Shown here piece after piece: positions 5,717 to 22,966 of a DNA stretch of 24,452 bases; the first letter of the stretch is position 1; every line of letters starts with the position of its first letter. The notes beneath the pieces were generated by a model that searched no databases, was not told the DNA's origin, and worked only from the letters and a program-made list of their open reading frames with translations. Both the position numbers and the translations under genes were made by a program. This DNA comes from Deltaproteobacteria bacterium (GTDB lineage: Bacteria; Desulfobacterota; DSM-4660; Desulfatiglandales; HGW-15): positions 1-24,452 of the forward strand of contig JAGUZM010000005.1 of NCBI GenBank assembly GCA_020060805.1, given 5' to 3'.

Positions 5717-5728
5717 AATTGCCACCTC

Positions 5729-7434: not shown

Positions 7435-7457
7435 TGTCCAGCAAGTGGACATGTCCA
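7435..7457. promoter_or_regulatory. Putative activator-binding site (UAS) A: TGTCCAGCAAGTGGACATGTCCA
   Basis: Perfect TGTCCA-N5-TGGACA palindrome overlapping a perfect 12-bp palindrome TGGACATGTCCA; ~200 bp upstream of the ubiD-1 sigma54 promoter; matches sites B and D. Confidence 0.7.
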
Positions 7458-7475
7458 AGCACAACTTTTCCGAGG

Positions 7476-8912
7476 ATGATGATGATGTACACCACTGAAA
7501 GAGACCATCTCACAATAATGAAAGAGGCACTCGGCGCCTATGGGTTTTCTCGGCTGATATCCCTTGCGCTTCGTTTCTTTGTACGAAACGCGTACGAGAG
7601 CCTGGTCATTACGGACAAGGAGGGGCGGATCCGCTTCATGGACCGAGGTTCCGAGAAACTTTTCGGGCTGGGCAAGGGTGAGGCATCGGGGCTCGAAATC
7701 GAGGCTCTTCTCCCGGATACCGCACTGCCCAAGGTAATCGAGACGGGTTATCCATCCATCGGGCGAGTCCTTAACGTGAAGGGAGTGAAGAAGATCGGTT
7801 CTTCCTATCCCCTTATCAAGGACGGGGAAGTCATAGGCGCCATAGGTCGCGTGCTTTTTCACTCTCTCGAGGAGGTGGAGCGCATCAACGATAAGATGAA
7901 GATGCTCAGGAGAGAAGTACGGACTTTGCGTCAAAGGTCGCAGAGTGAGTACAGTGCAGCCTACACCTTCCAGAATATTTTGGGAAAGAGTCCCGGAATC
8001 AAGAACTGTATTGCGATGTCCAAGAAGATTGCCATCGTCCAATCCGACGTGCTGATTTCAGGCGAAAGCGGGACAGGGAAAGAGCTCTTTGCGCAAGCTA
8101 TCCACAATTTCAGCGGATCCGACAGGCCTTTTGTGCGTGTCAACTGTCCGGCTATTCCTTTTGAGCTCGCTGAATCAGAACTCTTCGGATACGAGAAGGG
8201 GGCTTTTTCGGGTGCCGACCGGGAGGGCAGGAAAGGTAAATTCGAGGCCGCCGAAAATGGGACCGTATTCCTGGATGAAATCAATTCGCTCCCCCTTTCC
8301 ATTCAAGGAAAACTTCTCCGTGTCATTCAGGAGCGAGAAGTGGAAAAGGTAGGAAGCACGAGAACGAAGAAGCTCGATATCAGGATTATTGCAGCTACCA
8401 ACACTGACTTGAAGAAGGCCGTAAGCGCCGGATCTTTCCGGGAAGACCTGTACTATCGAATTGCAAGAACAAGTATCCACATTCCTCCCCTGAGAGAACG
8501 AAAGGAGGATATCGCTATTTACGCAGAGCACTTCCTGGTTTCGATAAATAGGCGGTTTGGAACACATTTCAATAAAATCTCGGATGACGCCCTTGCTTGC
8601 CTGAAACAATACTCTTGGCCGGGAAACATTCGAGCTCTCATCAACGTCCTTGAGCAAGCATGCCTAAGAGAATGGGAAGGGGACGAGATTCCGTTGTCGG
8701 CGCTTCCAGATGATCTGACATCGGACTACCGGAGGGACGAACCGGTTCGAGGCAATCGTCTCAGAACCACTCTTGAAAAACAGGAAATGGAGTTAATTAT
8801 TCAGACTCTTAATCGGGTGAAGGGGAATAAGAGACAAGCGGCAGTTCTGCTCGGAATACCGAGATCGAGTCTCTATAACAAGTTAAATTTCTACGGCAAG
8901 CTAAAAGATTAG
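7476..8912 (+). CDS. PAS domain-containing sigma54-interacting transcriptional activator with Fis-type HTH (regulator 1)
   Basis: PAS-like N-terminus (SLVITDKEGRIRFMDRGSEKLFGLGKGE), Walker A GESGTGKELFA, GAFSGA loop, VFLDEINSLP, C-terminal NKRQAAVLLGIPRSSLYNKL. The track ORF begins with TTG at 7392; a start among the ATGs at 7476-7485 (GAGG just upstream) is more likely. Confidence 0.92.
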   Translation: MMMMYTTERDHLTIMKEALGAYGFSRLISLALRFFVRNAYESLVITDKEGRIRFMDRGSEKLFGLGKGEASGLEIEALLPDTALPKVIETGYPSIGRVLNVKGVKKIGSSYPLIKDGEVIGAIGRVLFHSLEEVERINDKMKMLRREVRTLRQRSQSEYSAAYTFQNILGKSPGIKNCIAMSKKIAIVQSDVLISGESGTGKELFAQAIHNFSGSDRPFVRVNCPAIPFELAESELFGYEKGAFSGADREGRKGKFEAAENGTVFLDEINSLPLSIQGKLLRVIQEREVEKVGSTRTKKLDIRIIAATNTDLKKAVSAGSFREDLYYRIARTSIHIPPLRERKEDIAIYAEHFLVSINRRFGTHFNKISDDALACLKQYSWPGNIRALINVLEQACLREWEGDEIPLSALPDDLTSDYRRDEPVRGNRLRTTLEKQEMELIIQTLNRVKGNKRQAAVLLGIPRSSLYNKLNFYGKLKD

Positions 8913-8924
8913 CCTGTTTTCGCA

Positions 8925-10841
8925 TCATGTCGTGGCCGCGGCGCTGCACCTTTTTACATATTCCGCGACTACTAGTGGAATCGCTATAGCGATTCCGACC
9001 GCGTCGAAAATCAAACCAGGGATGATCATGACACCCCCGCCGCAGAAAAAGATCATCCGCTTGGGCCAGGAGAGCGAGCGGAACAGATAGCCTTCAAGGC
9101 CCATTGATATCACGTAAATGCCAGCAATCGCGCTCACGGCTCCCTCCACAATGTCGAAAAGCGACCCCTGGAGCAGCAGGGCGGGGCGATATGCGAATAT
9201 GAATGGGATAATATATGCAGCAATCCCGAGTTTCATCGATTGCAGTGCGGTCTTGAACATACTTGCTCCGGCAAGCGAGGCTGCAGCATAAGCCGCCAGG
9301 CAGACCGGGGGCGTCAGAAAGGAGAGGATTGCGTAATAAAAAACGAAGAAATGCGCTATTAATCCAGGAATTCCGGAGTCGACCAGGGCGGGGGCGATGA
9401 GGACCACCATCAGCAGGTATGCGGCGGTGACTGTCATCCCCATCCCCAGGATGCTTGCACCGATGGCCGCAAACAGCAGGAGCAGAAAAACATTTCCTCC
9501 TGCCAAAGATACCAACATGTCGGAAAATATGAAACCGAGTCCGGTGATGCTCAAGACGCCGATGATAATGCCTGCCCCGGCACTCGTGACCCCTACTTCC
9601 AAAAGCCCCCTTCCAGTATCACGAAGGACCGAAAGAGCTTTGGTCCATGTCACGCCTTGATGTCTCGCAAAGCAGAGGCCCAATGCGAGAGACCCCCCGG
9701 CCGTAATGAGACCGGAGCTCTCCGGCTCCCAGCCAAAGAAGAAAAGCAAGCCGATCAGCACTAGGAATGGCAGAACAAATGTCCAGCCTTTCAACACGAC
9801 CCTCCAGAAATTTGGGATCTGCTCAGATGGCATGCCTTTGAGATCGAGCTTAGCCGCCCTTAAGTCAACCTGAATGAACACCGCAAGGTAGTAGAGAGTC
9901 GCTGGGATAATCGCCGCGATGGCGATCTCCGAGTAGGGGATGTTAAGAAATGTGGCCATCAGGAAGGCCGCCGCCCCCATGATGGGAGGCATGATCTGAC
10001 CGCCGGTAGAAGCGACAGCCTCGACGGCGCCGGCGAAATAGGGGGGGTAGCCTGATCTTTTCATCAGTGGGATCGTAAACACCCCCGTCGTCACCACATT
10101 GGCTACGGCGCTCCCCGAAATGGAGCCAAACAGGCTCGATGCGATGACCGCCACCTTGGCCGGACCACCCCTGTATCTCCCCATCAAAGAAAAGGCGATG
10201 TCTATGAAAACCTTCCCGCCGCCTATAACCGAAAGCACTTGTCCAAACAACACGAAAACCAGCACTATGGTCGCCGATACATTCAAGGGCACACCGAATA
10301 TCCCTTGTTCGTCCAGATAGAGAAAGGTGACCAAAGAGGTGAAGGGTATACTTCTCATCCCCAAGATGCCCGGGAAATGAGACGAAAAGAGCGCGTAGAA
10401 TAGGAAAGGCAACATGATAATCACAAAGGGCAAACCGACGACTCTTCTGGATGACTCAAGGACCAGTAGCACTGCAATGAGGCCGAGTAAGACACGTTCC
10501 TGTGTAATTAGACCCGACTCAACAGCAAGGATCTCGTAATTCACGCTGACATAGAGTCCCGACATGATCGCGAGAATGGCAAAACAAAAATCATACCACG
10601 GCAGCCGATTTAATGCCTTGCCTTTCCTAATGGGGAATAGAAGAAACGAAGCTGCTATCACTAAACCGAAAACTACCCCCAAATATTGCTGAGTAAACAA
10701 GGGAATTTTCACGAATTCGCTAAGATGCAGCATGAAGACGATGCCGCTTATAGGGATGAGGGCGAGAACGAAGTCGGTCAAACCCCCAGCCCATCCTTTG
10801 AGTCTCCGAAAAGAAGTCTCCACGCCCTTCCTTTCACTCAT
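8925..10841 (-). CDS. TRAP transporter fused permease (4TM/12TM type), 638 aa (permease-1)
   Basis: Long polytopic protein; FGSISGSAVANVVTTGVFTIPLMKRSGYPPYFAGAVEAVASTGGQIMPPIMGAAAFLMA is characteristic of TAXI-associated TRAP fused permeases; upstream gene encodes a TAXI receptor. Confidence 0.93.
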   Translation of the reverse strand: MSERKGVETSFRRLKGWAGGLTDFVLALIPISGIVFMLHLSEFVKIPLFTQQYLGVVFGLVIAASFLLFPIRKGKALNRLPWYDFCFAILAIMSGLYVSVNYEILAVESGLITQERVLLGLIAVLLVLESSRRVVGLPFVIIMLPFLFYALFSSHFPGILGMRSIPFTSLVTFLYLDEQGIFGVPLNVSATIVLVFVLFGQVLSVIGGGKVFIDIAFSLMGRYRGGPAKVAVIASSLFGSISGSAVANVVTTGVFTIPLMKRSGYPPYFAGAVEAVASTGGQIMPPIMGAAAFLMATFLNIPYSEIAIAAIIPATLYYLAVFIQVDLRAAKLDLKGMPSEQIPNFWRVVLKGWTFVLPFLVLIGLLFFFGWEPESSGLITAGGSLALGLCFARHQGVTWTKALSVLRDTGRGLLEVGVTSAGAGIIIGVLSITGLGFIFSDMLVSLAGGNVFLLLLFAAIGASILGMGMTVTAAYLLMVVLIAPALVDSGIPGLIAHFFVFYYAILSFLTPPVCLAAYAAASLAGASMFKTALQSMKLGIAAYIIPFIFAYRPALLLQGSLFDIVEGAVSAIAGIYVISMGLEGYLFRSLSWPKRMIFFCGGGVMIIPGLIFDAVGIAIAIPLVVAEYVKRCSAAATT

Positions 10842-10892
10842 ATCTCCACCTCTTTGCGTCGGTGACTACGTAAGCGATAACCTTATTGTTTG

Positions 10893-11921
10893 CTATTTCT
10901 GTTCCTTCTTCAGGAGTTCCTCCTGAATGTTTGCCATTTCTTTGGTCCAGACGCCCTTTTCTTTGAAAAGCCTCACCGCCCCGGGGTGATAGGGAACAAT
11001 GAACTGGTTGGTAAGAAAGATCTCGGGCTTCCACGCTTTCAATCCAGCATGGATTTTCCCAAGCTCCTGATGATGATCCCAGAGGATCTTCATCACGTCG
11101 TACACCTTATCGTCAGGGTAGTTTGACCTGCAAATCAGGTAGATATCGTACCCCCACAAATAGCCTTCCTTTTCAATTCCGGTGTTCCCCGGACCAGGGG
11201 CGACTTTGACAGGATAGCCCGGGAAGAATTGTCGGGTACGGGCCAAAGCCTCCTGGGAAGTATCGAATTGAAGAAGGCGAGCCCCCTTCTTCGCATGGAG
11301 TTCATCGATGATAGGCATGCCCAGCGCTGCCGCCCCGCTCGCATCAGCCCGTCCGTCGATTACCACCGCCACGGCCTCCTGGACCGAATTGACCGGCACA
11401 GGTGTCACTTCGCTCCACTTGACTCCACCATTAGCCAGATACGCCTCTATTTGCAGTTGAAGAGATGGTACAGGCATGTTGCCGCCGACCCGCTTTCCCT
11501 TAAGGTCAGAATAGGAGAAGATACCGGAATCTTTCGCCACGACCAGACATCCAAGGTTATTCACGCTTATGGCAACCAAACGGACCGGAAAACCTTTACC
11601 CCCCGACAGCTTGGAGTAGACCGATTCGCCCAGCCAACTCTTCTCTGCATCCCACATATTGAGAACGCCCAGATCAATGCTGTCCCGTTCCATGAACGGG
11701 AGCCATGCCACAGGCCCTTTCATAGGTTTTACTGTGGGGACAACATCAGAGTGATCGGAAACTACTTTTGCAACCGCAGTTCCTACTACGTTGAAAAAGG
11801 AACCGACCGGATGTGTCCCGATGCTCATGAATTCTTTTGCGGGTGCCGACTCTGCTCCAAGTACCCAAGCAAGACAAAGAAGGGTAGCCATTATGATCAA
11901 GAACTTCACATTCCTTTTCAT
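10893..11921 (-). CDS. TAXI-family TRAP transporter solute-binding receptor, 342 aa (TAXI-1)
   Basis: Signal peptide; FMSIGTHPVGSFFNVVGTAVAKVVSD, GKRVGGNMPVPSLQLQIEAYLANGGV; upstream of the fused permease; GGAG ribosome-binding site. Confidence 0.92.
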   Translation of the reverse strand: MKRNVKFLIIMATLLCLAWVLGAESAPAKEFMSIGTHPVGSFFNVVGTAVAKVVSDHSDVVPTVKPMKGPVAWLPFMERDSIDLGVLNMWDAEKSWLGESVYSKLSGGKGFPVRLVAISVNNLGCLVVAKDSGIFSYSDLKGKRVGGNMPVPSLQLQIEAYLANGGVKWSEVTPVPVNSVQEAVAVVIDGRADASGAAALGMPIIDELHAKKGARLLQFDTSQEALARTRQFFPGYPVKVAPGPGNTGIEKEGYLWGYDIYLICRSNYPDDKVYDVMKILWDHHQELGKIHAGLKAWKPEIFLTNQFIVPYHPGAVRLFKEKGVWTKEMANIQEELLKKEQK

Positions 11922-11998: not shown

Positions 11999-12014
11999 AG
12001 CAAAATACTTGCCA
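11999..12014 (-). promoter_or_regulatory. Sigma54 (-24/-12) promoter for TAXI-1/permease-1: TGGCAA-GTATT-TTGCT
   Basis: Minus-strand reading TGGCAAGTATTTTGCT; exact GG-N10-GC spacing; ~80 bp upstream of the TAXI-1 start. Confidence 0.72.
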
Positions 12015-12136: not shown

Positions 12137-12159
12137 TGGACATGTCCATGCATTGGACA
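12137..12159. promoter_or_regulatory. Putative activator-binding site (UAS) B: minus-strand TGTCCAATGCATGGACATGTCCA
   Basis: TGTCCA-N5-TGGACA plus overlapping TGGACATGTCCA, the same three-half-site layout as site A; ~125-160 bp upstream of the TAXI-1 sigma54 promoter. Confidence 0.7.
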
Positions 12160-12382
12160 CCTGTTTTCGAATCGGTCTCGCAATAAGCCCACCCGGCAGA
12201 ACCGAACTTCACCACGACTTCGTTGGTATTGGTCCTTTGTCCAGTTGCTTTTCAGAATCGTCTCAACGCTTCGTCAATTGCTAGTCCGCGCGCCCTCTTG
12301 CCTTAGAACAGACATATTCTGAAGAGATCGTCGGCTCAACTTTGACGAATTCGTAAAAAGTCGAAAATGCGCTTTTTCAGTC

Positions 12383-12446: not shown

Positions 12447-12511
12447 GACGGCCTCAGGACTTTTTACGAGATTGTCAACTTTGATGCTCCCGTAAAAAGT
12501 CCGGCGCGTCC

Positions 12512-12671: not shown

Positions 12672-12687
12672 AGGCATGGTCTTTGCT
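12672..12687 (+). promoter_or_regulatory. Possible sigma54 promoter for ubiX: AGGCAT-GGTCT-TTGCT
   Basis: Exact GG-N10-GC spacing and a good -12 element (TTTGCT); the -24 element deviates (AGGCAT). About 195 bp upstream of the ubiX start. Confidence 0.42.
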
Positions 12688-13533: not shown

Positions 13534-14523
13534 CTATAGATGTAATAACCTTTTCGCGTTTCCCTCGAAAATCATTTTCTTGTGATCCTCGGGGATGGTA
13601 ATCGTATTTATTGCATCGATCGTTAGCCGCAGGTACCTGGCTCCACACTCGCAGTCATATGGCATATCTGTTCCAAATAGCATATGCTCAGATCCAAAGA
13701 AGGCATATCCGCACATAAGACTGTTTGGTGCTCCATAGAGGGCGGTGTCGCCATAAAACCTGCGAAAATACTCTATTGGAGGTTTGTTGAGATGTTTTTT
13801 GAATTTCGCTCCGAGGCAAACGTCTGCAAAATCCTGACCGCCTGCCATACGATCCGCAAAGTAGGGTAGCATGCCCCCACAGTGATGGGTTATGATCTTC
13901 AAGTTGGGATATTTCTCCATGATCCCGCTAAAAACAAGCCTTGTCATTGCCGAAGTTGTTTCATAGGGCCAGCCAAACATGCTGAAGATCCAGTACTTGG
14001 AATGATCTTCACTCCTGTAATCGGAGAAGCTTCGATCCCTTTGAGGGTGAATCCAGATTGGAAGGTCGTATTGTGACATTTTGTCGTAAAGCGGGAGAAA
14101 CTCTTTTTGATCTATCGGTTTGTCGTTTGTGGGCGTATATATCTGCACACCCTTAAAGTTTAGTTGAGTGATAGCTCTATCGAGTTCCTTTAAAGCGGCA
14201 TCGATATCGTTCATAGGAAGGCAGGCTACTGCGGCTACAAAGCGCCGAGGATATTTGGCTACCAGCTCTGCCATTTCATCATTTGCGAGTTTTGCGAGCT
14301 CAACTGCTTCCTTATCTCCGACGACGGATTCGATGGGAGGAGAAGCCAGGGTCAAAACCTGTCTGAGCCCGTCGAACTCATCAACAATGCCAAACCATCT
14401 GTCCAAATCCCACAGGGTGGGGACCGCGTCATCCACCCCGCGCAGGTAATAGTCACTTCGCGCTTTTCGATCGAGAGCATTCTTATAGTTGATGGGTAGA
14501 ATGTGGGCGTAGATATCTATCAT
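13534..14523 (-). CDS. Amidohydrolase-2 family protein (ACMSD-like decarboxylase/hydrolase), ~329 aa
   Basis: MIDIYAHILP, LPIWIHPQRDRSF, NLKIITHHCGGMLPYFADRM, HMLFGTDMPYDCE. The track ORF starts at 14589; ATG at 14523 (MIDIYAH) fits the usual family N-terminus. Confidence 0.88.
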   Translation of the reverse strand: MIDIYAHILPINYKNALDRKARSDYYLRGVDDAVPTLWDLDRWFGIVDEFDGLRQVLTLASPPIESVVGDKEAVELAKLANDEMAELVAKYPRRFVAAVACLPMNDIDAALKELDRAITQLNFKGVQIYTPTNDKPIDQKEFLPLYDKMSQYDLPIWIHPQRDRSFSDYRSEDHSKYWIFSMFGWPYETTSAMTRLVFSGIMEKYPNLKIITHHCGGMLPYFADRMAGGQDFADVCLGAKFKKHLNKPPIEYFRRFYGDTALYGAPNSLMCGYAFFGSEHMLFGTDMPYDCECGARYLRLTIDAINTITIPEDHKKMIFEGNAKRLLHL

Positions 14524-14625
14524 AAATTTCGGAATCTCCGCTTGCTTTTTCAATCCGAGGCTTAATTCAGCTGCATTTCTTCGAGGCAATCATGAGCACG
14601 GTGCGGCTCCGTTCTACATGTATAA

Positions 14626-15759
14626 TCAATCCATTCTTTCCTGGATACATCCGAACGGCTCACGTTTGATCAATGCTTCAAAACACTTGTTGCAGGAGAC
14701 GCACTTCGCTTTGTGCGCGGGATCTCTTTGCCATTCGGTGATCAGTTGTGGTTCTCTTATAAGAGGACGTGAAAGCGAAATGAGATCAGCGTCTCCCGTT
14801 TCAATGATTTCTTCCATGAGACTGAAAGACCTCAAACCGCCTACTATCATAATAGGCACATTCACTTTGGGCCGAACTTCTTTACACCATGGCCTGAAAT
14901 ATGCCTCCCGATCACGCGCGGTGATCTGTGTGCGGAACTCTGATTTTGAATACCCTTTGCCCCGTAGTCCAAGGCTGATCTCCAATGCCGTATATCCGGA
15001 TTCCGCAAGGAGTCGGCACGCCTGCCGACCTTCTTCAAAGCTGAGTCCTCCCGGCCGACCGTCTTGTACCCCGATTTTGATCATCACGGGGTAGTCCCCG
15101 CCTGTCGATGCCACAATTTGACGATAGATCTCGAGATGTATCCGGAGGCGGTTTTCGAGACTCCCTCCCCACGAATCGGTTCGCCGATTTGTCAATGGTG
15201 AAAGAAATTGGCTCAAGAGATAACCGTGGGCGGCATGGATCTGCACAGCATCAAAGCCGCTCGCCCTGGCCCTTACCGCGGCTTCGCCGAAAGCGTGAAC
15301 TACCGTAGAGATGTGATCTTCAGTCATGACCTGGTAGGAGTTTGGGTCGAGCAAATCATCTTCAATTCGTGAAGGCGAAAGCGCCGACTGATCTTTAGAC
15401 TTTATGAACTTCACCCTCTCAATGCCGGCATGAAATAGTTGAGCCGCTATTTTCGCTCCGAAATTATGAACCTTGGATGTCAATTCCCTGAAACTTGGGA
15501 TGCAGTCATCCTTAGCCAGGGAGTTCTGAAAACCGGATATCCTTCCTGAAGGGTGCACATAGGTAATCCCTGTGATAATCAGGCCCACCCCGCCGCTTGC
15601 CAGATCGGAGCAAATCTTTAATTGCTCCGCTGAGACACAGCCGTTTCTCTCGGCCGAGCCATCGTATGTGGCAGACCTTACAAAACGGTTTCGCAAAACC
15701 AAACCACCGATCGGGAATGGCTGAAAAATCTTGTTCAATGGAGATCCCCCCTTTTTCAT
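14626..15759 (-). CDS. NADH:flavin oxidoreductase/Old Yellow Enzyme family protein, 377 aa, with C-terminal Cys cluster
   Basis: LFQPF-type N-terminus (KIFQPFPIGGLVLRNRFVRSATYDG), FDAVQIHAAHGYLLSQFLSPLTNRRTDSWGGSLENRLR, LISLSRPLIREPQL, CVSCNKC(X11)C. The start may be the TTG at 15738. Confidence 0.93.
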   Translation of the reverse strand: MKKGGSPLNKIFQPFPIGGLVLRNRFVRSATYDGSAERNGCVSAEQLKICSDLASGGVGLIITGITYVHPSGRISGFQNSLAKDDCIPSFRELTSKVHNFGAKIAAQLFHAGIERVKFIKSKDQSALSPSRIEDDLLDPNSYQVMTEDHISTVVHAFGEAAVRARASGFDAVQIHAAHGYLLSQFLSPLTNRRTDSWGGSLENRLRIHLEIYRQIVASTGGDYPVMIKIGVQDGRPGGLSFEEGRQACRLLAESGYTALEISLGLRGKGYSKSEFRTQITARDREAYFRPWCKEVRPKVNVPIMIVGGLRSFSLMEEIIETGDADLISLSRPLIREPQLITEWQRDPAHKAKCVSCNKCFEALIKREPFGCIQERMD

Positions 15760-15820
15760 TCCATTGTGAGAGACTGTACTGTAGAGAGACTTCTTTGTCG
15801 CTGTTCACGCCATTGCCTGG

Positions 15821-16309
15821 TCACGGTCCCGCCTTGATTCTGAACTCCTCGTCCATCTCGACCCAGCCCGGACCGAATCTCTGGTCATAAAAAGCGGCAA
15901 AACGATCGTACCATCGGGCCCATGTGCTTTTCCCCGCCTGCAGCGCCTCAAGGACGTCATTCAGGTAAGCGGCAATATTCTCGAGTTTTTCCTTTGGTAT
16001 GAAAAAGGCGGCACCCTGCTTGAATGACTTCACCGTGTCCTGAACGGTTAAAGAGTGGGCAGTGAGCATTACGGGGATCACCCTCCTGCGCTTTGCAACC
16101 TCAAGAAGCGAATACCCGTCGACTCCCATGATGTCGAGCACGGCGATGTCAAAGTACTCGTTCTCGAGAAGTTTCTTCGCCTTTTCAAATGTCTCGGCCT
16201 TCACCACGTCGCACATCGATAGGAGGGACTCCAGTGTGGCCAGAATATCGGGTTCATCATCGACCACGAGAACTCTTTTGTATTTCAACACGTCCTTTCT
16301 CCTGTTCAC
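15821..16309 (-). CDS. Single-domain (REC) response regulator with the same C-terminal tail as RR1 (RR2)
   Basis: VLVVDDEPDILATLESLL, FDIAVLDIMGVDGYSLLEVAK, VIPVMLTAHSLT, tail WARWYDRFAAFYDQRFGPGWVEMDEEF. True start may be GTG 16291 or TTG 16288, judging by the nearby AGGAGAAAGG. Confidence 0.9.
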   Translation of the reverse strand: MNRRKDVLKYKRVLVVDDEPDILATLESLLSMCDVVKAETFEKAKKLLENEYFDIAVLDIMGVDGYSLLEVAKRRRVIPVMLTAHSLTVQDTVKSFKQGAAFFIPKEKLENIAAYLNDVLEALQAGKSTWARWYDRFAAFYDQRFGPGWVEMDEEFRIKAGP

Positions 16310-16359
16310 TTATCCTCATTTTTGTCTGCCATTTGGACTTCATCCCTGCCGTGAGCCCC

Positions 16360-18249
16360 CTAGCTCTTGCTTTCTACCGGATACGAGCTGCCCCTAGACA
16401 TCCGTGAACGGATATTCCGCCATAACAGAATGGCTGCTATGGTCAACAGCCCGAGCATGTTCAATACTATGTTATGAGGGATAAGGCAAATGCTTGCGCA
16501 TAGGACGAGAAGCCTTTCAGGCAGCGTCAGCTTGGAAGTGGCGAAACCCAGGAACGACATGGATATTCCACCGATGGCGACGAACGCAGTGAAAATGCGG
16601 TAAATTACATAAACGACAGATCCCTTCAGCATGATCTCCGGCGAATAGACGAAGAGAAAGGGCACGATGAAAGTCGGCGCAGAAATCAGGAATGCCAGAT
16701 TGGTAGTTTTCAGAGGATCTGTCCTGGCAATACCCGCTGCCGCAAAGGAGCACGGTGCTGAAGGGGGGGTGATGTTGCCGAGAACCCCGAAGTGGAAAAT
16801 GAACAAGTGCGCTGCCATGGGATGTATCCCACTCTGAACGAGTGCAGGCGCGGCAAGGATTGCCAGGATGAGATAAGCCGTCACGGGGGGCAGAGGCAGC
16901 CCGATAATTACCGAGGCGACCATGGTCAGGAGGAGCAGGACGATTTTGTTCCCTCCTGCTACATAAAGCAGTATCTCTGTAAAGCGGAGTCCCAGCCCTG
17001 TGAGATTGATCACTCCCTCGATGATTCCGGCCGCTGCGCACGACATAATCACGATCAATGCCGTTTTCGGGCCGTTTTCAAGGGCCAGGATCAACTTTGA
17101 GAAGGACATCCTTGTCGCCTTTCGGAGTAGGCTGATGGCGAGCAGTGCAATGATTGCCCAAAACCCGGCCTTCTTGGTGCTCACATTCTCGACAATCAGC
17201 AGGTAGAAGATGACCAGGAGCGGAAAAAAGAGATGACCATACTGGCTCAGCAGTGAACGGATCTTCGGCAGTTCAGATTTGGGCGCCTTTACGAGCCCGA
17301 GTTTCTTGCCCTGGATCTGTATGAACGTGAATACGGTCATGTAGAAAAGGAGGCCGGGTACCAGTGCGGCGCGCATGACGTCCAGGTAGCTTCCGCCGAT
17401 GATCTCAGGGATGATGAAGGCCGCTGCCCCCATCACAGGGGGAACCAACATTCCCCCTGTTGAAGAAAGCGCCTCAATGGCTGCGGCCATTATGGGCTTG
17501 TATCCTGAGCGGATCATAAGGGGAATGGTCAAGGTGCCTACAGCCGCAACGTTTGCCGTCTGGCTTCCAGTCATCATGCCGAAAAGGCAGCTCCCCAGGA
17601 CGGCTGCTTTAGCGGCCCCGCCCCTGAACCTCCCAAAAATGCCGTAGCCAATGTTCGTAAAGGCGTGAGTACCACCCGTCTGTTCGAGGAAGGCACCAAA
17701 AATGAGGAAAATGATGATCACGGTCGCGGACACGCTCAAAGCAACCCCCAATATTCCCTCGGTGCTGAGGAACATGTGCGAAACCACCCTCTCGAACGAA
17801 TACCCGCTGTGAGCGAACATGGAAGGCAAGTACTTTCCGAACGCTACATAGGCAAGGCTCAACAAAACCAAAACGCACATGGTGAGCCCCATGATGCGAC
17901 GCGTCGCCTCTGTGACGAGCACGATCGCCGTTGTTCCCACAATGCAATCCAAAATGTTCGGCGAGCCCTCCCTTGATGCGATGTTCTCATACTCCAGCAG
18001 AACATAAAGGGAGATGAATGCACTCAAAAAAACCAGAACGTAGTCTATCGCCAAGGCGGTACCAGTGTGTCTGCTACGGAATGTTTTCTGCAGGGGCAAG
18101 AGAAGGAATACCAGGATGAGCCCGAACCCGAGATGGATAGATCTCTGCTGCATTGCAGGAAGCTGCTGTATCCCAGCAGTGTAGATCTGGAATAAAGACA
18201 TCGCGATTGCAATGATCCCTATGACCCTTTTTGAAGTAATCCATCTCAT
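16360..18249 (-). CDS. TRAP transporter fused permease (4TM/12TM type), 629 aa (permease-2)
   Basis: FGMMTGSQTANVAAVGTLTIPLMIRSGYKPIMAAAIEALSSTGGMLVPPVMGAAAFIIPEIIG; LGNITPPSAPCSFAAAGIA; similar organisation to permease-1. Confidence 0.93.
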   Translation of the reverse strand: MRWITSKRVIGIIAIAMSLFQIYTAGIQQLPAMQQRSIHLGFGLILVFLLLPLQKTFRSRHTGTALAIDYVLVFLSAFISLYVLLEYENIASREGSPNILDCIVGTTAIVLVTEATRRIMGLTMCVLVLLSLAYVAFGKYLPSMFAHSGYSFERVVSHMFLSTEGILGVALSVSATVIIIFLIFGAFLEQTGGTHAFTNIGYGIFGRFRGGAAKAAVLGSCLFGMMTGSQTANVAAVGTLTIPLMIRSGYKPIMAAAIEALSSTGGMLVPPVMGAAAFIIPEIIGGSYLDVMRAALVPGLLFYMTVFTFIQIQGKKLGLVKAPKSELPKIRSLLSQYGHLFFPLLVIFYLLIVENVSTKKAGFWAIIALLAISLLRKATRMSFSKLILALENGPKTALIVIMSCAAAGIIEGVINLTGLGLRFTEILLYVAGGNKIVLLLLTMVASVIIGLPLPPVTAYLILAILAAPALVQSGIHPMAAHLFIFHFGVLGNITPPSAPCSFAAAGIARTDPLKTTNLAFLISAPTFIVPFLFVYSPEIMLKGSVVYVIYRIFTAFVAIGGISMSFLGFATSKLTLPERLLVLCASICLIPHNIVLNMLGLLTIAAILLWRNIRSRMSRGSSYPVESKS

Positions 18250-18485
18250 GCTTTACTCCAATTCCGGCAGGATTTTGTCATTACTGCGGCAACTGAGCGT
18301 CATGGTTGTCGTTTTGCTGACCGGAGCCTGTCTCATCAAGACCGGCAAATGGAACTGCATGCCTCCACATTTTCAGCGGGACAGTTAGTCCAAGCCGGGT
18401 TGGCCGACAGTCCTATTCGGTCGCCTCTTGAGAAGGGCATTCGATAATGTGCATCAGGCGACTCTCTGCAAAAAGGTCATGGAGG

Positions 18486-19451
18486 CTACTTGAAAATACC
18501 GGCTTCTTTGAAGTACTTTTCAGCCCCTTTGTGAAATGGGAAGGCGATGGTGCGTTTTACGCTTTGAGGGTTCATCTCGTTCGCAACCGGGTGGATCTCA
18601 ATCAGCTCTTTTCTGTTTTCAAAAAGCGCTTTGGTCATTTTGTAAACGAGATCCTCCTTCACCCCTTCGTGGGTTTCGAGCGGCACGCCGAATACGAGAA
18701 TTGGCGTAGGCTGATCGACGCCGCTGTAAGATCCCGGTTTCAGAGTGTCATGATAGAGATATGGGTTTTCCGGCAGGATCTTCTTCAGCACTTCCTCGTT
18801 GGCTGGGATCACACGGATTTCCTTTCGAATGCTGAGTTCCTTCATGGCCGGAATCGGGTATGCGCCGGAGATAAACCCAGCATCGATGCTCTCGTCCTGC
18901 AAGCCCTCGACCACCTCCTTGTAGCCTAGCCACAGTTGCTTGTACATGTCTTTGGTGACTCCGTGGGCCGTGATCAAATCCAGAGCTAACTGTGATGTTC
19001 CGCTACCGGCCGCACCAAGGGCCACCCTCTTGCCCTTCAGATCGGCAATGGTCTTTATGGAGGAATTCTTGAGCACTACCAGGTTCATCCCCGCGCCGTA
19101 TAGAAAGGTGATGGCCCGGAGTCCATCGTAAGCCTTTTCAAATGGCGGCTTTCCTGCATAAGCCAAATAGAGAAGCTTCGAGTCACTTATCCCAAAGGCG
19201 GCCTGCCCCTTTGATTGTTTCTCGTCGAGATACTTGATCGTGGCGGAAGACCCGCCTGTCCCTTCCACCATCATCTGCACTTCGGGTACGTGTTTGTTCA
19301 GGACCTTGGCAATCGCTCCTCCAAGAAAGTAGGCTGTTCCTCCAGAGCCCGGCGTGTAAATGGGAATGACCTCTTTTGCAATGGAAACTGGAGTTTGACA
19401 AAGAACCGCCATCCCAAAAACTGCCATAAGGACCATTTCAAACTTTTTCAT
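18486..19451 (-). CDS. TAXI-family TRAP transporter solute-binding receptor, ~321 aa (TAXI-2)
   Basis: MKKFEMVLMAVFGMAVLCQTPVSIAKE signal peptide; IYTPGSGGTAYFLGGAIAKVLNKHVPEVQMMVEGTGGSSATIKYL. The track start at 19493 is less likely; ATG 19451 has AAAGGGGG just upstream. Confidence 0.92.
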   Translation of the reverse strand: MKKFEMVLMAVFGMAVLCQTPVSIAKEVIPIYTPGSGGTAYFLGGAIAKVLNKHVPEVQMMVEGTGGSSATIKYLDEKQSKGQAAFGISDSKLLYLAYAGKPPFEKAYDGLRAITFLYGAGMNLVVLKNSSIKTIADLKGKRVALGAAGSGTSQLALDLITAHGVTKDMYKQLWLGYKEVVEGLQDESIDAGFISGAYPIPAMKELSIRKEIRVIPANEEVLKKILPENPYLYHDTLKPGSYSGVDQPTPILVFGVPLETHEGVKEDLVYKMTKALFENRKELIEIHPVANEMNPQSVKRTIAFPFHKGAEKYFKEAGIFK

Positions 19452-19485
19452 AAAGCCCCCCTTTCTCTTAACGGGTTCGTTGCAA

Positions 19486-21057
19486 TCAAACATACTTGCG
19501 CCTCATCTCCTTCTTCTCCAGTTTGCCGGTCGGATTCCTCAGTACTTCATCGAAGATGATGCGCCTCGGTCTCTTGTATCTCGCAATTTTTCTTTCAAAA
19601 AAGGCGGTCAACTCTTTCTTCGTTTCACTTGAATCAGGGATATTCGACTTGAGTTTAATTACCGCCGTGACCATCTCACCTAGCCTGTCATCGGGGAGCC
19701 CTATTACAGCCACATCGTGAACTTTGGGATGAGTTTGTATCAGCTCTTCGACTTCAGTGGGGTACACGTTCTCGCCCCCACAGATAATCACGTCCTTTTT
19801 CCTATCGACGATCCAATAAAACCCCTCCGAATCCCTTCTCGCCAAGTCGCCGGTATATAGCCAGCCGTCCCTTATCGTTCTTGCGGTCAGTTCCGGATTT
19901 TTGTAATACTCTTTCATGACGCCGTTCCCTCGGACAACGATTTCTCCGACATCTCCCCGCCGTGTATCGTTGCCGGAATCATCCACCAGTTTCACCTCCC
20001 AGTTGAATCCCGGCTTGCCGATCGAGCCCACTTTGTGCTCGTTCTCGATCCCGAGGTGAAGACATTGAGGCCCAGTTCCCTCAGTGAGCCCATAGTTCTC
20101 ATCAAAGATCATGTTAGGGAATTCCTTTTTCCACCTCGTGATCAGACTCGGCGGAACCGGTTGCGCGCCGAGCAAAAGGAGTCGCCATTCACTCAAATCG
20201 TAATCTGATTTCTTCAGTGTCCCCGCTTCCAGTTCCCCCAGTATGTCCTGGATCCATGGAACGAGGAGCATGCAAACAGATCCTCGCTCCTCCGATAGAA
20301 CCCGAAAAATCGCTTCCGGAGTAATTTTGTCTCCCTGTATTATGGCCGATTCACCCATGATGAGACTGGAAAGCCAGTGAATAAAATCCCCGGTGTGGTA
20401 GAGAGGCTTCAGAATCACGAATATGTCGCCGCTCCTTCGAAGCTGATGTACCACCTCGATGATCGCAGCGTGCTCCATGTTGTTGTGGCTGAGCAGAATG
20501 GGTTTCGGCTTCCCTGTAGTTCCCGATGTGAAATAGAGACCGCAGGGGTCACTAGGCTCAAGGCGTGTAAAAAATGGTTCCGGGGAGGATCCAGCCATAA
20601 TCGCGGGGAGACATTCCATGCCCCTTGCGGCACTCGGCCCGTTGACGAATATGACGAAATCACGTTTCTTCTCGAGTTCCGCCTCGATTACTCTGGGGGC
20701 GAATTTCTCGTCGAGGATCATTGCCGCCGGTTCGGCTACGTCCATGCAGTGGCGGAAATCATCCGATGTGAACCGAAAGTTGAGAGGAACGACAACTGCG
20801 CCTGTACGAATGATCCCAAAGTACGCCGCCACCCAGGAGATGGAATTCATCATCCAATGAATCACCTTATCTCCCTTCCTTACGCCTCTTCCTGTGAGGG
20901 AGTTGGCGATCCTGTTGACCATCTCATTCAACTCTCTCCAGGTGACCTCAACTCGCAGGTTTTTACTCGGCAGCCGTTCAACGAGGGCGATCTTGTCAGA
21001 ATGCATCCTCGCGTTCCTTGCCAGCATTTCTGAGATATCCATGACGCCTATTACCAT
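19486..21057 (-). CDS. AMP-dependent acyl-CoA synthetase/ligase (class I adenylate-forming), 523 aa
   Basis: GLYFTSGTTGKPKPILLSHNNMEHA, ENYGLTEGTGPQC, GWLYTGDLARRDSEGFYWIVDRKKDVIICGGENVYPTEVEE, RNPTGKLEKKEMR. Start may be 21042 (MDISEM). Confidence 0.94.
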   Translation of the reverse strand: MVIGVMDISEMLARNARMHSDKIALVERLPSKNLRVEVTWRELNEMVNRIANSLTGRGVRKGDKVIHWMMNSISWVAAYFGIIRTGAVVVPLNFRFTSDDFRHCMDVAEPAAMILDEKFAPRVIEAELEKKRDFVIFVNGPSAARGMECLPAIMAGSSPEPFFTRLEPSDPCGLYFTSGTTGKPKPILLSHNNMEHAAIIEVVHQLRRSGDIFVILKPLYHTGDFIHWLSSLIMGESAIIQGDKITPEAIFRVLSEERGSVCMLLVPWIQDILGELEAGTLKKSDYDLSEWRLLLLGAQPVPPSLITRWKKEFPNMIFDENYGLTEGTGPQCLHLGIENEHKVGSIGKPGFNWEVKLVDDSGNDTRRGDVGEIVVRGNGVMKEYYKNPELTARTIRDGWLYTGDLARRDSEGFYWIVDRKKDVIICGGENVYPTEVEELIQTHPKVHDVAVIGLPDDRLGEMVTAVIKLKSNIPDSSETKKELTAFFERKIARYKRPRRIIFDEVLRNPTGKLEKKEMRRKYV

Positions 21058-21121
21058 CCTTCCGGCACTAAGGGTTGAGGAAGAAGGCCAGAACTATGAC
21101 GTTTTACCGGAACATACTAAA

Positions 21122-21162
21122 GGCCGCCAACCTTAACTAATCACGGCTGAAGGAAGGCGGCC
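21122..21162. other. Intercistronic stem-loop between ubiD-2 and the acyl-CoA synthetase gene
   Basis: GGCCGCC (21122-21128) pairs with GGCGGCC (21156-21162) with a partly paired interior; no T-tract, so not a classical terminator. Confidence 0.45.
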
Positions 21163-21173
21163 GGGAGCAAGAA

Positions 21174-22691
21174 CTACCTTCCCGTTTTGGCGAGCGACCG
21201 AGCATATTCGGTCTGCATGCCACGAAAATCGGCAAGCTGCTTCTCGGAGAACCATTTTTTCAGGTCAACTTTGTCCACAGGATAATGGGGTCGAGTGAAG
21301 TAGTGCGCGGTCTTGAAGGGCTTTGTTGCGTCGAATGCCATCCCGCCTTCCCATCCGCCAAGGCCACTCTGCCTGACTTCTTTTGGCTGGGCTGCTATGC
21401 CGCGCCCCCCGCGTGGAAGCTTAATAATATCTTTGTCGGGGTCGACACGGCTCTCCAGAGCCCACATCACGTCGTCGGCATTGTAGATGTCTACATCCTC
21501 GTCAACGGCAATCGCCATCCTGATACCAGGCGCATCCGCAAGCGCCGAAAAGAGAATGTTCCTCTGAAATCCTTCCTCCTGCGATCGCTCCTTGCGCACC
21601 TGGAAAATGACTCCACTCCCCCACTTGAAGTAATCGGGGATGTTGACATCCACACATATGCCCGGGGCAATCCTTTCTGCCATCTCGAAAAACGTTGCCT
21701 CCCTGAGCAGATCGAAACACGCGTATTCCAGCCCTGCCGCAAGGGGGGTGTAGAAGATGGGACGTTCCTTCCTCATGGTGACAGCGGTGACTTGGAGTTT
21801 ACGCACCTTCCATGTGGTGCCCATATATCCTACCCATTCCGGGAAAAAATTAGTCTCCCCCTGGCGCTGCACTCCCAGTTTTTCTGCTTCTTCGCTTTCC
21901 CACACATTCTGGGAGGTCGGCTCTAGATAACCTTCCAGCACTATCTCGGCATCCGCGATGGCATACGCATCAACGGTCCTCGCTTTCACCAGTTTGACCG
22001 GCGCCCCCTGAAATCCACCGGCGATTCCCAGTTCATCGCTTCCGTGAGGCACGATCGTTCTCACGTTCCAGGTGCCCGCCACGATGCCGACTGCAGGGCT
22101 GGGGTTCATATTCACGGTTATTGGAATCCTCTCGTCACGATGGGTCTTGAAGGCCATCATCCCAATGTGAGTGATTTGGGCAGTTGATATCGAAGCCCAG
22201 TCTTTACCCCTGAAATGAATCCGATTGAATGAGATGTTCGTATCGCCTTTTCTGTAGACATCGCACAGGAGCTGATTTCCGCACCCGATGATCCTGCCGG
22301 CATCGAATTCCGTGTGTTTGATGATCGGAAGCATTGTTGGTACATCGATGTCCTTGGTGATTACCACTTCCTGGCAAGGCGCGTCTTTCACTATCTGGGG
22401 AGGTATCGGCTCTCTCAACGCCTCCACAAACTTGAATTTAAGCTTGTTCGGGTCGCTCACTCCGTAGAGGTCGGCAATCGGTTCTCGCCTTCCGAAAATA
22501 TTGCCGAGGTCGCGAAAACCGGGGTATCCCTTTATTTTGTCGAAAAGGAGTATAGGTCCCTTCTCCAACGCCTTTTGAATCCCGGCGATTTCGTAGATCG
22601 GATCTACCTCTTCCTTCACATGGACCACCTGGCCTTTCTTATCCAGGTAAGCCAACGCCCCTCTTATGGACGTCACATCTCTTTTTTCCAT
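21174..22691 (-). CDS. UbiD-family prenylated-FMN-dependent (de)carboxylase, divergent subgroup, ~505 aa (UbiD-2)
   Basis: GPILLFDKIKGYPGFRDLGNIFGRREPIADLYGV, NPSPAVGIVAGTWNVRTIVPHGSDELGIAGGFQGAPVKLVKARTVDAYAIADAEIVLEGYLEP, DEDVDIYNADDVMWALESRVDP. ATG 22691 has GGAGG upstream (track start 22739). Confidence 0.93.
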   Translation of the reverse strand: MEKRDVTSIRGALAYLDKKGQVVHVKEEVDPIYEIAGIQKALEKGPILLFDKIKGYPGFRDLGNIFGRREPIADLYGVSDPNKLKFKFVEALREPIPPQIVKDAPCQEVVITKDIDVPTMLPIIKHTEFDAGRIIGCGNQLLCDVYRKGDTNISFNRIHFRGKDWASISTAQITHIGMMAFKTHRDERIPITVNMNPSPAVGIVAGTWNVRTIVPHGSDELGIAGGFQGAPVKLVKARTVDAYAIADAEIVLEGYLEPTSQNVWESEEAEKLGVQRQGETNFFPEWVGYMGTTWKVRKLQVTAVTMRKERPIFYTPLAAGLEYACFDLLREATFFEMAERIAPGICVDVNIPDYFKWGSGVIFQVRKERSQEEGFQRNILFSALADAPGIRMAIAVDEDVDIYNADDVMWALESRVDPDKDIIKLPRGGRGIAAQPKEVRQSGLGGWEGGMAFDATKPFKTAHYFTRPHYPVDKVDLKKWFSEKQLADFRGMQTEYARSLAKTGR

Positions 22692-22774
22692 TCTTCCCTC
22701 CTGATGATCGCAATTTCTTTGTTGGCTCAGTTCACTCAAAGTTGTCTACGCTCGATTTCTTATAACTGCCTATT

Positions 22775-22790
22775 AGCAAAGAACGTGCCT
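22775..22790 (-). promoter_or_regulatory. Sigma54 (-24/-12) promoter for the ubiD-2 operon: AGGCAC-GTTCT-TTGCT
   Basis: Minus-strand reading AGGCACGTTCTTTGCT; exact GG-N10-GC spacing; ~85 bp upstream of the ubiD-2 start. Confidence 0.78.
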
Positions 22791-22862
22791 CAATCTACTT
22801 GCCTGATTTTACACTATAAAATAAATGTACAACCAAAAAAAGTCTGCATATCCTCTCAAAGA

Positions 22863-22879
22863 TGTCCATTTTGCAGACA
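22863..22879. promoter_or_regulatory. Putative activator-binding site (UAS) C: TGTC-CATTTTGCA-GACA
   Basis: Same TGTC-N9-GACA spacing as sites A, B and D; ~75 bp upstream of the ubiD-2 sigma54 promoter. Confidence 0.55.
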
Positions 22880-22943
22880 TCGTTCTAGATAATATCTTCT
22901 GATTCTATGAACTTACTCAAATATTGAGATCATGACCTAAAAA

Positions 22944-22966
22944 GAGACATGTCTTTTTGCTGGACA
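22944..22966. promoter_or_regulatory. Putative activator-binding site (UAS) D: minus-strand TGTCCAGCAAAAAGACATGTCTC
   Basis: 18/23 identical to site A, including TGTCCAGCAA and GACATGTC; ~155 bp upstream of the ubiD-2 sigma54 promoter. Confidence 0.68.

Follow-up and report, generated by a model that had tools for sequence, protein, structure and literature searches.

TGTCCA-N5-TGGACA elements as predicted enhancer sites of two PAS-domain sigma-54 activators beside UbiD, CoA-ligase and TRAP transporter operons

Enhancer sites of the form TGT-N10-12-ACA include those of NifA (TGT-N10-ACA), FhlA and 15 clostridial groups, among them PrdR, whose predicted sites read TGTC-N8-GACA and sometimes occur as adjacent pairs 17 nt apart (PMC6615313). 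A similar arrangement is found in Enterobacteriaceae, where three TGTC-N10-GACA motifs for GlrR (QseF/YfhA), a two-component response regulator with a receiver domain, are located more than 100 nt upstream of the sigma-54 promoter of the small RNA targets glmY/glmZ (PMC3045617). In Aromatoleum anaerobium, an anaerobic aromatic-degradation cluster contains three sigma-54 promoters with conserved enhancer sites, and its activators RedR1 and RedR2 are 97% identical, share a GAF+PAS N-terminus and form hetero-oligomers (PMC10084136).

The window described here (the whole analysed stretch of 24,452 nt from a Deltaproteobacteria bacterium) contains four TGTCCA-N5-TGGACA(TGTCCA) elements, which are very probably the sites of two related sigma-54 activators controlling the neighbouring operons for aromatic-acid breakdown and transport. 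The genes concerned are arranged as follows:

44..7165, minus strand: operon 1, PpcA-like UbiD (UbiD1), gamma-like small subunit, PaaK-like CoA ligase, FAD flavoprotein, stand-alone receiver protein, DctQ and DctM
7476..8912, plus strand: regulator 1, enhancer-binding protein with PAS, AAA+ (sigma-54 interaction) and HTH_8 domains, adjoining site A; it has four in-frame ATG codons at 7476-7487
8925..11921, minus strand: operon 2, TAXI-type solute-binding protein and fused DctQM permease
13534..22739, minus strand: operon 3, UbiD2, FadD-like CoA ligase, TAXI solute-binding protein, fused DctQM permease, stand-alone receiver protein, OYE flavoenzyme and Amidohydro_2 protein
23028..24452, plus strand: regulator 2, paralogous enhancer-binding protein with PAS, AAA+ and HTH_8 domains, adjoining sites C and D

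Pfam Sigma54_activat (E 1e-65) and HTH_8 are found in both regulators, which bears out the claim of a first-pass annotation that AAA+ sigma-54 activators adjoin A and C/D. The two proteins are 48% identical, and regulator 1 has an N-terminal domain with a predicted PAS fold that is PAS-only. The same annotation had described duplicated catabolic modules; the modules are parallel rather than recently duplicated, as the UbiD enzymes are only 25% identical, the receiver proteins 56%, and the ligases come from different families.

The four sites were recovered exactly where, and with the sequences that, the first-pass annotation had given:

7435-7457: site A, TGTCCAGCAAGTGGACATGTCCA, comprising the dyad TGTCCA-GCAAG-TGGACA (7435-7451) and an abutting TGTCCA (7452-7457); the 12-nt palindrome TGGACATGTCCA spans 7446-7457
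12137-12159, minus strand: site B, TGTCCAATGCATGGACATGTCCA, which on the plus strand reads TGGACATGTCCA-TGCAT-TGGACA
22863-22879: site C, TGTCCATTTTGCAGACA, a single dyad TGTCCA-TTTTG-CAGACA
22944-22966, minus strand: site D as first noted, TGTCCAGCAAAAAGACATGTCTC
22933-22966: site D in full, TGACCTAAAAAGAGACA followed by TGTCTTTTTGCTGGACA, that is, TGACCT-AAAAA-GAGACA and TGTCTT-TTTGC-TGGACA

Site B is the three-half-site unit of site A in opposite orientation. Three half-sites had been proposed for each of A, B and D, which holds for A and B; D has a fourth and forms a 34-nt double dyad of two abutting 17-nt dyads. The third half-site is better understood as opening a second, weaker dyad that abuts the 17-nt dyad. 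The centres of the dyad half-sites lie 11 nt apart, those of the abutting half-sites only 6 nt, normally an unusual geometry for a single HTH dimer.

The frame TGTC-N9-GACA occurs four times in the window (0.34 expected), a count reached in 0 of 100 dinucleotide shuffles, and GACATGTC occurs three times (0.37 expected), again matched in 0 of 100. All four sites fall within the 2363 nt (9.7%) of non-coding DNA, upstream of sigma-54 promoters as had been claimed, and the motif is not equally common inside genes: TGTCCA-N5-TGGACA with up to two mismatches has only two coding-region matches in the window, at 3932 and 9780, both lacking the TGTC...GACA frame. A scan for -24/-12 elements (GG-N10-GC, at least 9 of 11 consensus positions) predicts a correctly oriented promoter between a site and the first gene of each minus-strand operon:

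7223..7238, minus strand (7238-7223): predicted sigma-54 promoter P1, TGGCACACTCCTTGCT, 11 of 11 consensus positions, serving the UbiD1 operon
11999..12014, minus strand (12014-11999): predicted sigma-54 promoter P2, TGGCAAGTATTTTGCT, serving the TAXI-TRAP transporter operon
22775..22790, minus strand (22790-22775): predicted sigma-54 promoter P3, AGGCACGTTCTTTGCT, serving the UbiD2 operon

Measured from the -24 GG to the site centre, A lies at about 207 nt, B at 130-139 nt, C at about 83 nt and D at 153-170 nt. All four therefore fall about 70-250 nt upstream of a -24/-12 promoter facing the genes to be regulated, in agreement with the enhancer distances suggested earlier. A search with the E. 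coli consensus found no IHF-like site between the sites and the promoters.

With its inverted repeat, its TGT/ACA ends and its position upstream of a -24/-12 promoter, TGTCCA-N5-TGGACA (TGT-N11-ACA) belongs to the TGT-N10-12-ACA class. It differs from the PrdR type in the N9 between TGTC and GACA, the longer half-site TGTCCA and the strongly conserved abutting TGGACATGTCCA. The best-scoring NCBIfam model for both regulators is PrdR (NF041552), but their scores of 428 and 404 bits stay far below the equivalog cut-off of 795, and in these Thermodesulfobacteriota-type organisms they would control UbiD, CoA-ligase and TRAP operons instead of proline reductase (prd) genes. NifA does not fit either, as its upstream activator sequence proper has a 16-nt TGT-N10-ACA frame, the score is 311 bits (cut-off 529), and the N-terminus is PAS where NifA has GAF. 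The GlrR sites share the TGTC/GACA half-site ends, the multiple copies and the downstream sigma-54 promoter, but their spacing is 1 nt longer; the GlrR/QseF score is 250 bits (cut-off 763), and the regulators here are one-component PAS proteins without a receiver domain. The locus resembles that of RedR1/RedR2, at the level of sequence, in having two paralogous activators and enhancer sites of a shared type at several sigma-54 promoters of one catabolic cluster. It is not of the same near-identical GAF+PAS type, given the 48% identity and PAS-only N-terminus, and the organism group and pathway also differ. The first-pass annotation had called the regulon uncharacterised; this holds for the regulator subfamily, whereas the motif class TGT-N10-12-ACA / TGTC...GACA had already been described (PMC6615313; PMC3045617). 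The locus would represent a sound but rather unexceptional form of gene control in bacteria.

The sites were also followed through a family set of 46 metagenomic loci whose regulators are homologues of regulator 1 (about 45-70% identical); as the queries used to collect these loci were regulator-1-like, the regulator-2 clade is represented by three loci. Allowing up to two mismatches, the 450-nt stretches upstream of the regulator-1 homologue genes (18.7 kb over the 46 loci) contain 46 copies of the dyad and the other 263 kb contain 18, so that the upstream stretches are enriched 36-fold. It is recognisable in 31 of 39 loci, 30-90 nt before the regulator start, and in nearly all of these sits between a -24/-12 element and the regulator gene; in 35 of the 39, a divergent -24/-12 element forms a sigma-54 promoter 70-300 nt past the site. 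The only clear peaks are TGTCC-N7-GGACA (22 of 37 regions) and the abutting GGACATGTCC (27 of 37). At the observed spacing, TGTCC...GGACA gives 26 matches, against 0 and 3 at the neighbouring spacings, and the 6-N5-6 dyad is the sole clearly enriched inverted-repeat spacing, accompanied by a weaker peak for TGTCC-N12-GGACA. Tandem copies, which in the homologue regions are offset by 10 or 17 nt, account for the further weak peaks seen where half-sites are offset by 10, 15 or 17 nt. The half-sites thus lie about one helical turn apart, the dyads usually occur in multiple copies, and the 12-nt palindrome TGGACATGTCCA is the most conserved core of the family.

Alignments of orthologous intergenic regions show the A-type block as almost the sole conserved block besides the promoter. 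The surrounding intergenic DNA cannot be aligned, yet the block is kept where the regulators are 45-70% identical. At the locus of the regulator-2 orthologue (L120), the sites have changed mostly in their spacers, two of the D half-sites carrying one change each; P3 is conserved there, and site C is kept with substitutions in the spacer only. In a further locus (L118), the region downstream of the regulator-1 orthologue retains a B-like block. For B and C, which are not next to a regulator start, comparative support comes from L118 (B) and the closely related L120 (C).

Depending on the locus, the divergent operon begins with a gene for UbiD, for BKACE or for a TAXI binding protein; the motif stays with the regulator while the target gene changes. 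Loci encoding unrelated enhancer-binding proteins served as a control: the 71 scanned (782 kb) contained no dyad with up to one mismatch and one exact core, against 33 dyads and 20 exact cores in the 282 kb of family loci. The motif thus co-localises and co-evolves with the regulator family and is absent from the control loci. The enrichment, the alignments and the clean control strongly support the earlier proposal that the sites are enhancers of the adjacent activators, and the conservation expected in homologous loci is seen for both dyad and promoter at the regulator-1 homologues. Very probably the elements serve as upstream activator sequences for one-component PAS/AAA+/Fis-type HTH_8 enhancer-binding proteins, which make up a large, uncharacterised subfamily.

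Under this reading, each 17-nt dyad TGTCCA-N5-TGGACA would be bound by one dimer through its C-terminal HTH pair; the half-site centres of NtrC sites are likewise 11 nt apart. A second abutting dyad, which creates the palindrome TGGACATGTCCA, could hold two or more dimers side by side. The PAS domain would sense a signal, presumably an aromatic acid or pathway intermediate, whereupon the dimers would form an active ATPase ring. Through DNA looping this ring would reach the sigma-54 holoenzyme at the -24/-12 promoter about 85-210 nt away and open the promoter, switching on the UbiD/UbiX-type (de)carboxylase and CoA-ligase operon and the TRAP transporters. Regulator 1 most likely uses A and B, possibly with the ubiX promoter, and regulator 2 uses C and D.

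The sites had been presented as a shared code tying three operons together, and the strongest alternative is a single regulon in which both paralogues bind all four sites, perhaps as mixed oligomers, and three to four operons are co-induced by either signal. The common TGTC-N9-GACA frame stands and speaks for it, as do the membership of both regulators in one subfamily with the recognition-helix residues R-S-x-x-Y-x-K conserved and the precedent of RedR1/RedR2 with shared enhancer sites at three sigma-54 promoters (PMC10084136). However, the paralogues here are far less alike than RedR1 and RedR2, the inner half-sites are GGACA in A and B but AGACA/TGTCT in C and D, and the clades show consistent differences in and beside the recognition helix (PRS[ST][FL]Y against QRS[LVA]LY). 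Since the motif is a family-wide signature of the PAS enhancer-binding protein subfamily, its presence at three operons is no proof of one shared regulon. The single regulon is therefore plausible though disfavoured; some cross-binding between regulators and sites is possible, and a division into two sub-regulons is no less likely than one regulon.

The position of A and D relative to the regulator genes suggests a second function. The relevant promoter is:

7401..7428, plus strand: sigma-70-type promoter predicted for regulator 1 (TTGACA, 16 nt, TG-n-TATCCT)

It stops 6 nt short of A, which spans about +1 to +23 of the transcript, and the last half-site of D doubles as a -35-like hexamer for regulator 2. 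As A lies at about +1 of one promoter and D over the -35 of the other, the bound protein probably represses its own gene (A for regulator 1, D for regulator 2), and the site probably doubles as an autorepression operator of the regulator genes. In 16 of 30 homologue loci, as in the window, the dyad follows the end of a sigma-70-type -10 box by 4-6 nt. TGGACA resembles the -35 hexamer TTGACA, and promoter function could explain part of the conservation beside regulator genes. Sites with such a dual role are familiar from XylR at Pr/Ps (TOL plasmid) and NtrC at glnAp1/glnAp2, where enhancers likewise lie over a sigma-70 promoter, that of the activator's gene or of one next to it, and a single bound protein acts as both activator and repressor; the regulator subfamilies and motifs differ, and the overlap here is predicted from promoter-like sequences.

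The same features would fit A and D being mainly autorepression operators or parts of sigma-70 promoters, so that only B and C, or none of the sites, activate sigma-54 promoters; the placement of the homologue sites shortly before the regulator start, directly after a -10 box, points the same way. This is improbable, because 35 of 39 homologue loci have a divergent sigma-54 promoter and most of them no other conserved dyad as enhancer, dual use has the precedents just named, and the palindromic partner TGTCCA plays no part in a -35 element. Still less credible is binding by another factor encoded elsewhere, for example of the CRP/FNR family, so that the sites would be tied to the enhancer-binding proteins only indirectly. 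Other regulators besides the latter use TGTC...GACA half-sites, and CRP/FNR-family proteins often recognise TGTC/GACA-type inverted repeats, but their frame is 16 nt and the dyad here 17 nt, the motif follows the regulator gene while neighbouring targets vary and is absent around unrelated enhancer-binding proteins, and the sites are spaced as enhancers would be from sigma-54 promoters, whose activity depends strictly on an enhancer-binding protein. Chance similarity, or functionless inheritance from a segmental duplication of a regulator-plus-promoter unit, could draw on the TGTCCAGCAA common to A and the reverse complement of D, part of the spacer included, but is effectively refuted by the comparative data (a block kept across 45-70% identical regulators amid unalignable flanks) and by the shuffles.

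Beyond the three operons, the activator-site reading may extend to one further promoter:

12672..12687, plus strand: candidate sigma-54 promoter P4, AGGCATGGTCTTTGCT, upstream of ubiX (12883-13470)

Two MITE-like insertions make up about 300 of the 513 nt between B and P4. On this arrangement ubiX is a possible fourth target, to which B may be linked through P4; this candidate role and the likely autoregulatory operator role are both additions to the first-pass annotation.

The dyad TGTC-N9-GACA is present four times in the window (at 7435, 12143, 22863 and 22950), against 0.34 copies expected, and none of 100 dinucleotide-preserving shuffles reaches four. The string GACATGTC occurs three times (at 7448, 12139 and 22946; 0.37 expected in the window). 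The positions and strings of the four sites in the first-pass annotation, named here A (7435-7457), B (12137-12159), C (22863-22879) and D, agree with the window sequence, and all four copies are indeed non-coding, falling within the 2363 nt (9.7%) outside the 19 genes. The count of half-sites was the one point to be amended: the sites stand as read, but D reaches leftward to a fourth half-site and spans 22933-22966, forming two abutting 17-nt dyads, TGACCTAAAAAGAGACA and TGTCTTTTTGCTGGACA. Sites with three mismatches in the window are nearly all coding and were dismissed. The gaps at 18249-18486 and 21057-21174 contain neither site nor promoter, and an Rfam search of the window gave no match.

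The window comprises three minus-strand operons and three plus-strand genes:

7165 to 44, minus strand: operon 1, encoding a phenylphosphate-carboxylase-alpha-like UbiD, a gamma-like small subunit, a PaaK-like CoA ligase, an FAD flavoprotein, a stand-alone receiver protein, DctQ and DctM
11921 to 8925, minus strand: operon 2, a TAXI-type TRAP transporter
22739 to 13534, minus strand: operon 3, encoding a second, distant UbiD, a FadD-like CoA ligase, a second TAXI-TRAP transporter, a second receiver protein, an OYE flavoenzyme and an Amidohydro_2 protein
7476-8912, plus strand: regulator 1, a sigma-54 activator
23028-24452, plus strand: regulator 2, a sigma-54 activator
12883-13470, plus strand: ubiX

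The two regulators are paralogues (48% identical), and each contains Sigma54_activat, AAA_lid_14 and HTH_8 domains. In regulator 1, a PAS fold is predicted for the N-terminal domain (pLDDT 78), whose best PDB matches are CitA PASc, NifL and the N-terminus of TyrR. The true start codon of regulator 1 is ambiguous, because four consecutive in-frame ATG codons are present (7476-7487) and a GAGG Shine-Dalgarno-like sequence directly abuts the first.

A scan of the window for -24/-12 elements (GG-N10-GC, at least 9 of 11 consensus positions) returned eight matches, and the four non-coding ones all face the next gene:

7238-7223, minus strand: predicted sigma-54 promoter P1 of operon 1, TGGCACACTCCTTGCT
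12014-11999, minus strand: predicted sigma-54 promoter P2 of operon 2, TGGCAAGTATTTTGCT
22790-22775, minus strand: predicted sigma-54 promoter P3 of operon 3, AGGCACGTTCTTTGCT
12672-12687, plus strand: candidate sigma-54 promoter P4, AGGCATGGTCTTTGCT, 196 nt upstream of ubiX

Transcripts are predicted to begin close to 7212, 11988 and 22764 (minus strand, operons 1 to 3), 12698 (plus strand, ubiX) and 7435 (regulator 1). As had been proposed, the sites lie upstream of the operon promoters, with A about 207 nt, B 130-139 nt, C 83 nt and D 153-170 nt from the -24 element. Such distances are typical for enhancers; no match to the E. coli IHF consensus was found between sites and promoters. Since a good -24/-12 element precedes ubiX, the supply of prenyl-FMN cofactor for both UbiD enzymes may also be sigma-54 dependent. 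No motif copy is closer to P4 than site B, 513 nt away, and because some 300 nt of this distance consists of two MITE-like insertions, one may speculate that B once served, or still serves, both directions. These insertions are adjacent (12336-12635, about 150 nt each) and bear the terminal inverted repeats TCAACTTTGA..CGTAAAAAGTC and GACTTTTTACG..TCAACTTTGA; the second also includes an internal 36-nt hairpin.

Public metagenomes contain thousands of relatives of regulator 1, where their best annotation is "transcriptional regulator with PAS, ATPase and Fis domain"; named matches belong to Desulfobacteraceae, Syntrophorhabdus and Thermodesulfobacteriota MAGs. When metagenomes were scanned with an alignment of the N-terminal domain specific to the subfamily, 46 loci were obtained. 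In these, TGTCCA-N5-TGGACA (up to two mismatches) has 46 matches in the 18.7 kb immediately upstream of the regulators and 18 in the other 263 kb, a 36-fold enrichment. A minus-strand -24/-12 element is located 124-357 nt upstream of the regulator in 35 of the 39 loci having enough upstream DNA, and the dyad, recognisable in 31 of these 39, is there nearly always placed between that element and the regulator. The negative control consisted of 71 loci (782 kb) with unrelated sigma-54 activators, taken from a single-query contig search with regulator 1 that retrieved only distant activators (30-50% identity over the AAA+ domain). The control loci contain no dyad at up to one mismatch and one exact core, against 33 and 20 in the 282 kb of family loci.

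When the intergenic region of regulator 1 is aligned with those of its orthologues (L118/L119, 70% protein identity; L073; L074), TGTCCA-N5-TGnACATGTCC is essentially the only block that is conserved; each of these loci also has the sigma-54 promoter, but the promoter does not form such a block. The regulator-2 orthologue (L120/L121, 87%) retains both C and D, with in-site substitutions mostly in the spacers and single changes in two half-sites of D. Enrichment before regulators and retention among orthologues together lend strong support to the interpretation, first made from the window alone, that the sites are enhancers of sigma-54 activators. The motif tracks the regulator rather than the target: most loci have a UbiD as the divergent first gene, but a TAXI binding protein takes this place in L074, L109 and L110, and a BKACE enzyme does so in L101 and L113.

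In L118, a B-like block, GCACATGTCCATTTATTAGACA, lies downstream of the regulator-1 orthologue, beside the remnant of a transporter binding-protein gene. There the TAXI-TRAP operon of the window has been lost, and a 77-aa binding-protein fragment and the B-like sites TGTCTTGAAATGGACA and GCACATGTCCATTTATTAGACA remain (7124-7623), which looks like a decayed branch of the regulon. Off-region copies in L073, L078, L089, L090, L098 and L101 were considered as remote enhancers and rejected, being genic or without a convincing nearby, correctly oriented -24/-12 element (L073 and L089 offer only 9-of-11 matches, about 170-300 nt off). Half of the non-upstream matches (9 of 18) are perfect or near-perfect copies of TGTCCA-N5-TGGACA within the regulator coding sequence of a homologue sub-clade, at the codons for V-Q-[FY]-M-D-[KR], some 180 nt downstream from the site that precedes the gene (L075 1484-1500; L109 5117-5133; L110 about 5114; L111 about 3492; L105 about 5114). 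This dyad, absent from the two regulators of the window, may act as a further operator or simply reflect codon usage.

On the simplest reading, the element is built from a dyad of 17 nt whose half-site centres are separated by 11 nt, with a second dyad set directly against the first, so that the facing halves form TGGACA followed at once by TGTCCA. NtrC sites have the same frame, with half-site centres 11 nt apart. The second dyad is represented by only its first half in A and B, D has both dyads complete, and C is a single dyad. A spacing scan of 37 non-redundant upstream regions showed two dominant arrangements, TGTCC-N7-GGACA (22 of 37) and the abutting GGACATGTCC (27 of 37), with secondary peaks at half-site offsets of 10, 15 and 17 nt and a smaller one at TGTCC-N12-GGACA. 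Many homologue loci have tandem cores at a 10-nt offset, GGACATGTCT-GGACATGTCC, with TGACCA-N5 in front, and the regulator-proximal consensus is T-GGACATGTCC-AAAAA. In such compound sites, three to five half-sites are closely packed.

A second role is suggested at the regulator genes themselves. Regulator 1 is preceded by a strong sigma-70-type promoter (7401-7428; TTGACA, 16 nt, TG-n-TATCCT) that ends 6 nt before A. Among 30 homologue loci, 16 have a TANNNT box ending 4-6 nt before the dyad (10 of them with an extended TG and 10 with a -35 at the correct spacing), which puts the site at about +1 to +30 of the transcript of the regulator gene itself. In the case of regulator 2, the -35-like hexamer is the last half-site of D, an arrangement kept in L120. 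Because the sites overlap the transcript start or the -35 of the regulators' own promoters, negative autoregulation by the bound activator is likely, as with XylR at Pr/Ps and NtrC at glnAp1.

The first-pass annotation had also described one regulon shared by duplicated modules, and this is supported only in part. The common motif and the paralogous regulators speak for it. Recent duplication is ruled out by the protein identities between the catabolic modules (UbiD 25%, binding proteins 26%, permeases 33%, receiver proteins 56%), whose CoA ligases are of different families; on this comparison the two are parallel modules, not recent duplicates. The 12-mer TGGACATGTCCA is the same in A and B, whereas the inner half-sites of C and D, like the sites of the regulator-2-clade locus L123, read AGACA/TGTCT, and the recognition helix is LG[MI]PRS[ST][FL]Y in the regulator-1 clade and LGIQRS[LVA]LY in the regulator-2 clade. 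Since half-sites and helices differ by clade, albeit in a small sample, there are hints of partial specificity, in which A and B (perhaps also ubiX) would be served by regulator 1, and C and D by regulator 2; cross-binding between the two is possible.

A more elaborate and rather improbable scheme would make the 12-nt palindrome TGGACATGTCCA and the fixed-offset half-sites (3 to 5 in 23-33 nt) a compact assembly platform, on which the HTHs of neighbouring dimers sit back to back, 6 nt apart, template the active ring and block the regulator's own promoter. Co-resident paralogues, the two of the window included, would then cross-bind or mix oligomers, because the paralogues of the family all use a near-identical core. 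If so, anaerobic aromatic-acid catabolism would be governed by a combinatorial network rather than by insulated one-regulator, one-operon switches.

By its pattern, the window element belongs to the known TGT/ACA enhancer class. In clostridial sigma-54 regulons, inverted TGT/ACA repeats 10-12 nt apart, similar to those of NifA and FhlA, are reported for 15 groups of activators, PrdR among them, and the PrdR sites are TGTC-N8-GACA, sometimes 17 nt apart (supplementary table; PMC6615313). Within this class the window element is distinguished by its own spacing (N9), a longer half-site and the characteristic abutting palindrome. Both regulators find their best NCBIfam match in PrdR, but their scores of 428 and 404 bits fall well short of the cut-off of 795. 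[quoted passage not shown] RedR1 and RedR2 set a precedent, being two paralogous activators of an anaerobic aromatic pathway in which three sigma-54 promoters have shared enhancers (PMC10084136). A literature search of incomplete coverage found no paper on this motif or regulator subfamily.

The general picture of sigma-54 enhancer action is unchanged, and the window is a well-behaved example of this architecture in an understudied group. PAS-type sigma-54 activators of this kind form a large, unstudied subfamily, to which a concrete DNA motif and promoter architecture can now be assigned; public metagenomes contain hundreds of its members, mostly from Thermodesulfobacteriota-like anaerobes. 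Their typical partners are operons for UbiD/UbiX (de)carboxylases, CoA ligases and TRAP transporters, of the kind used for anaerobic aromatic-acid breakdown. The motif may serve for regulon prediction in uncultured degraders, for tying orphan transporters and ubiX to pathways, and for effector-responsive biosensors.

Each catabolic module also encodes one stand-alone receiver protein of about 163 aa without an output domain (1883-2374 and 15821-16309). Similar genes are found in operons under homologous regulators as well (L120 1026-1523; L097 about 6806-7276), and this recurrence suggests that the receiver proteins are conserved accessory partners in signalling. Finally, the decamer GGACATGTCC (window 7447-7456 and 12138-12147) fits the eukaryotic p53 half-site consensus RRRCWWGYYY, which we take to be a coincidence.
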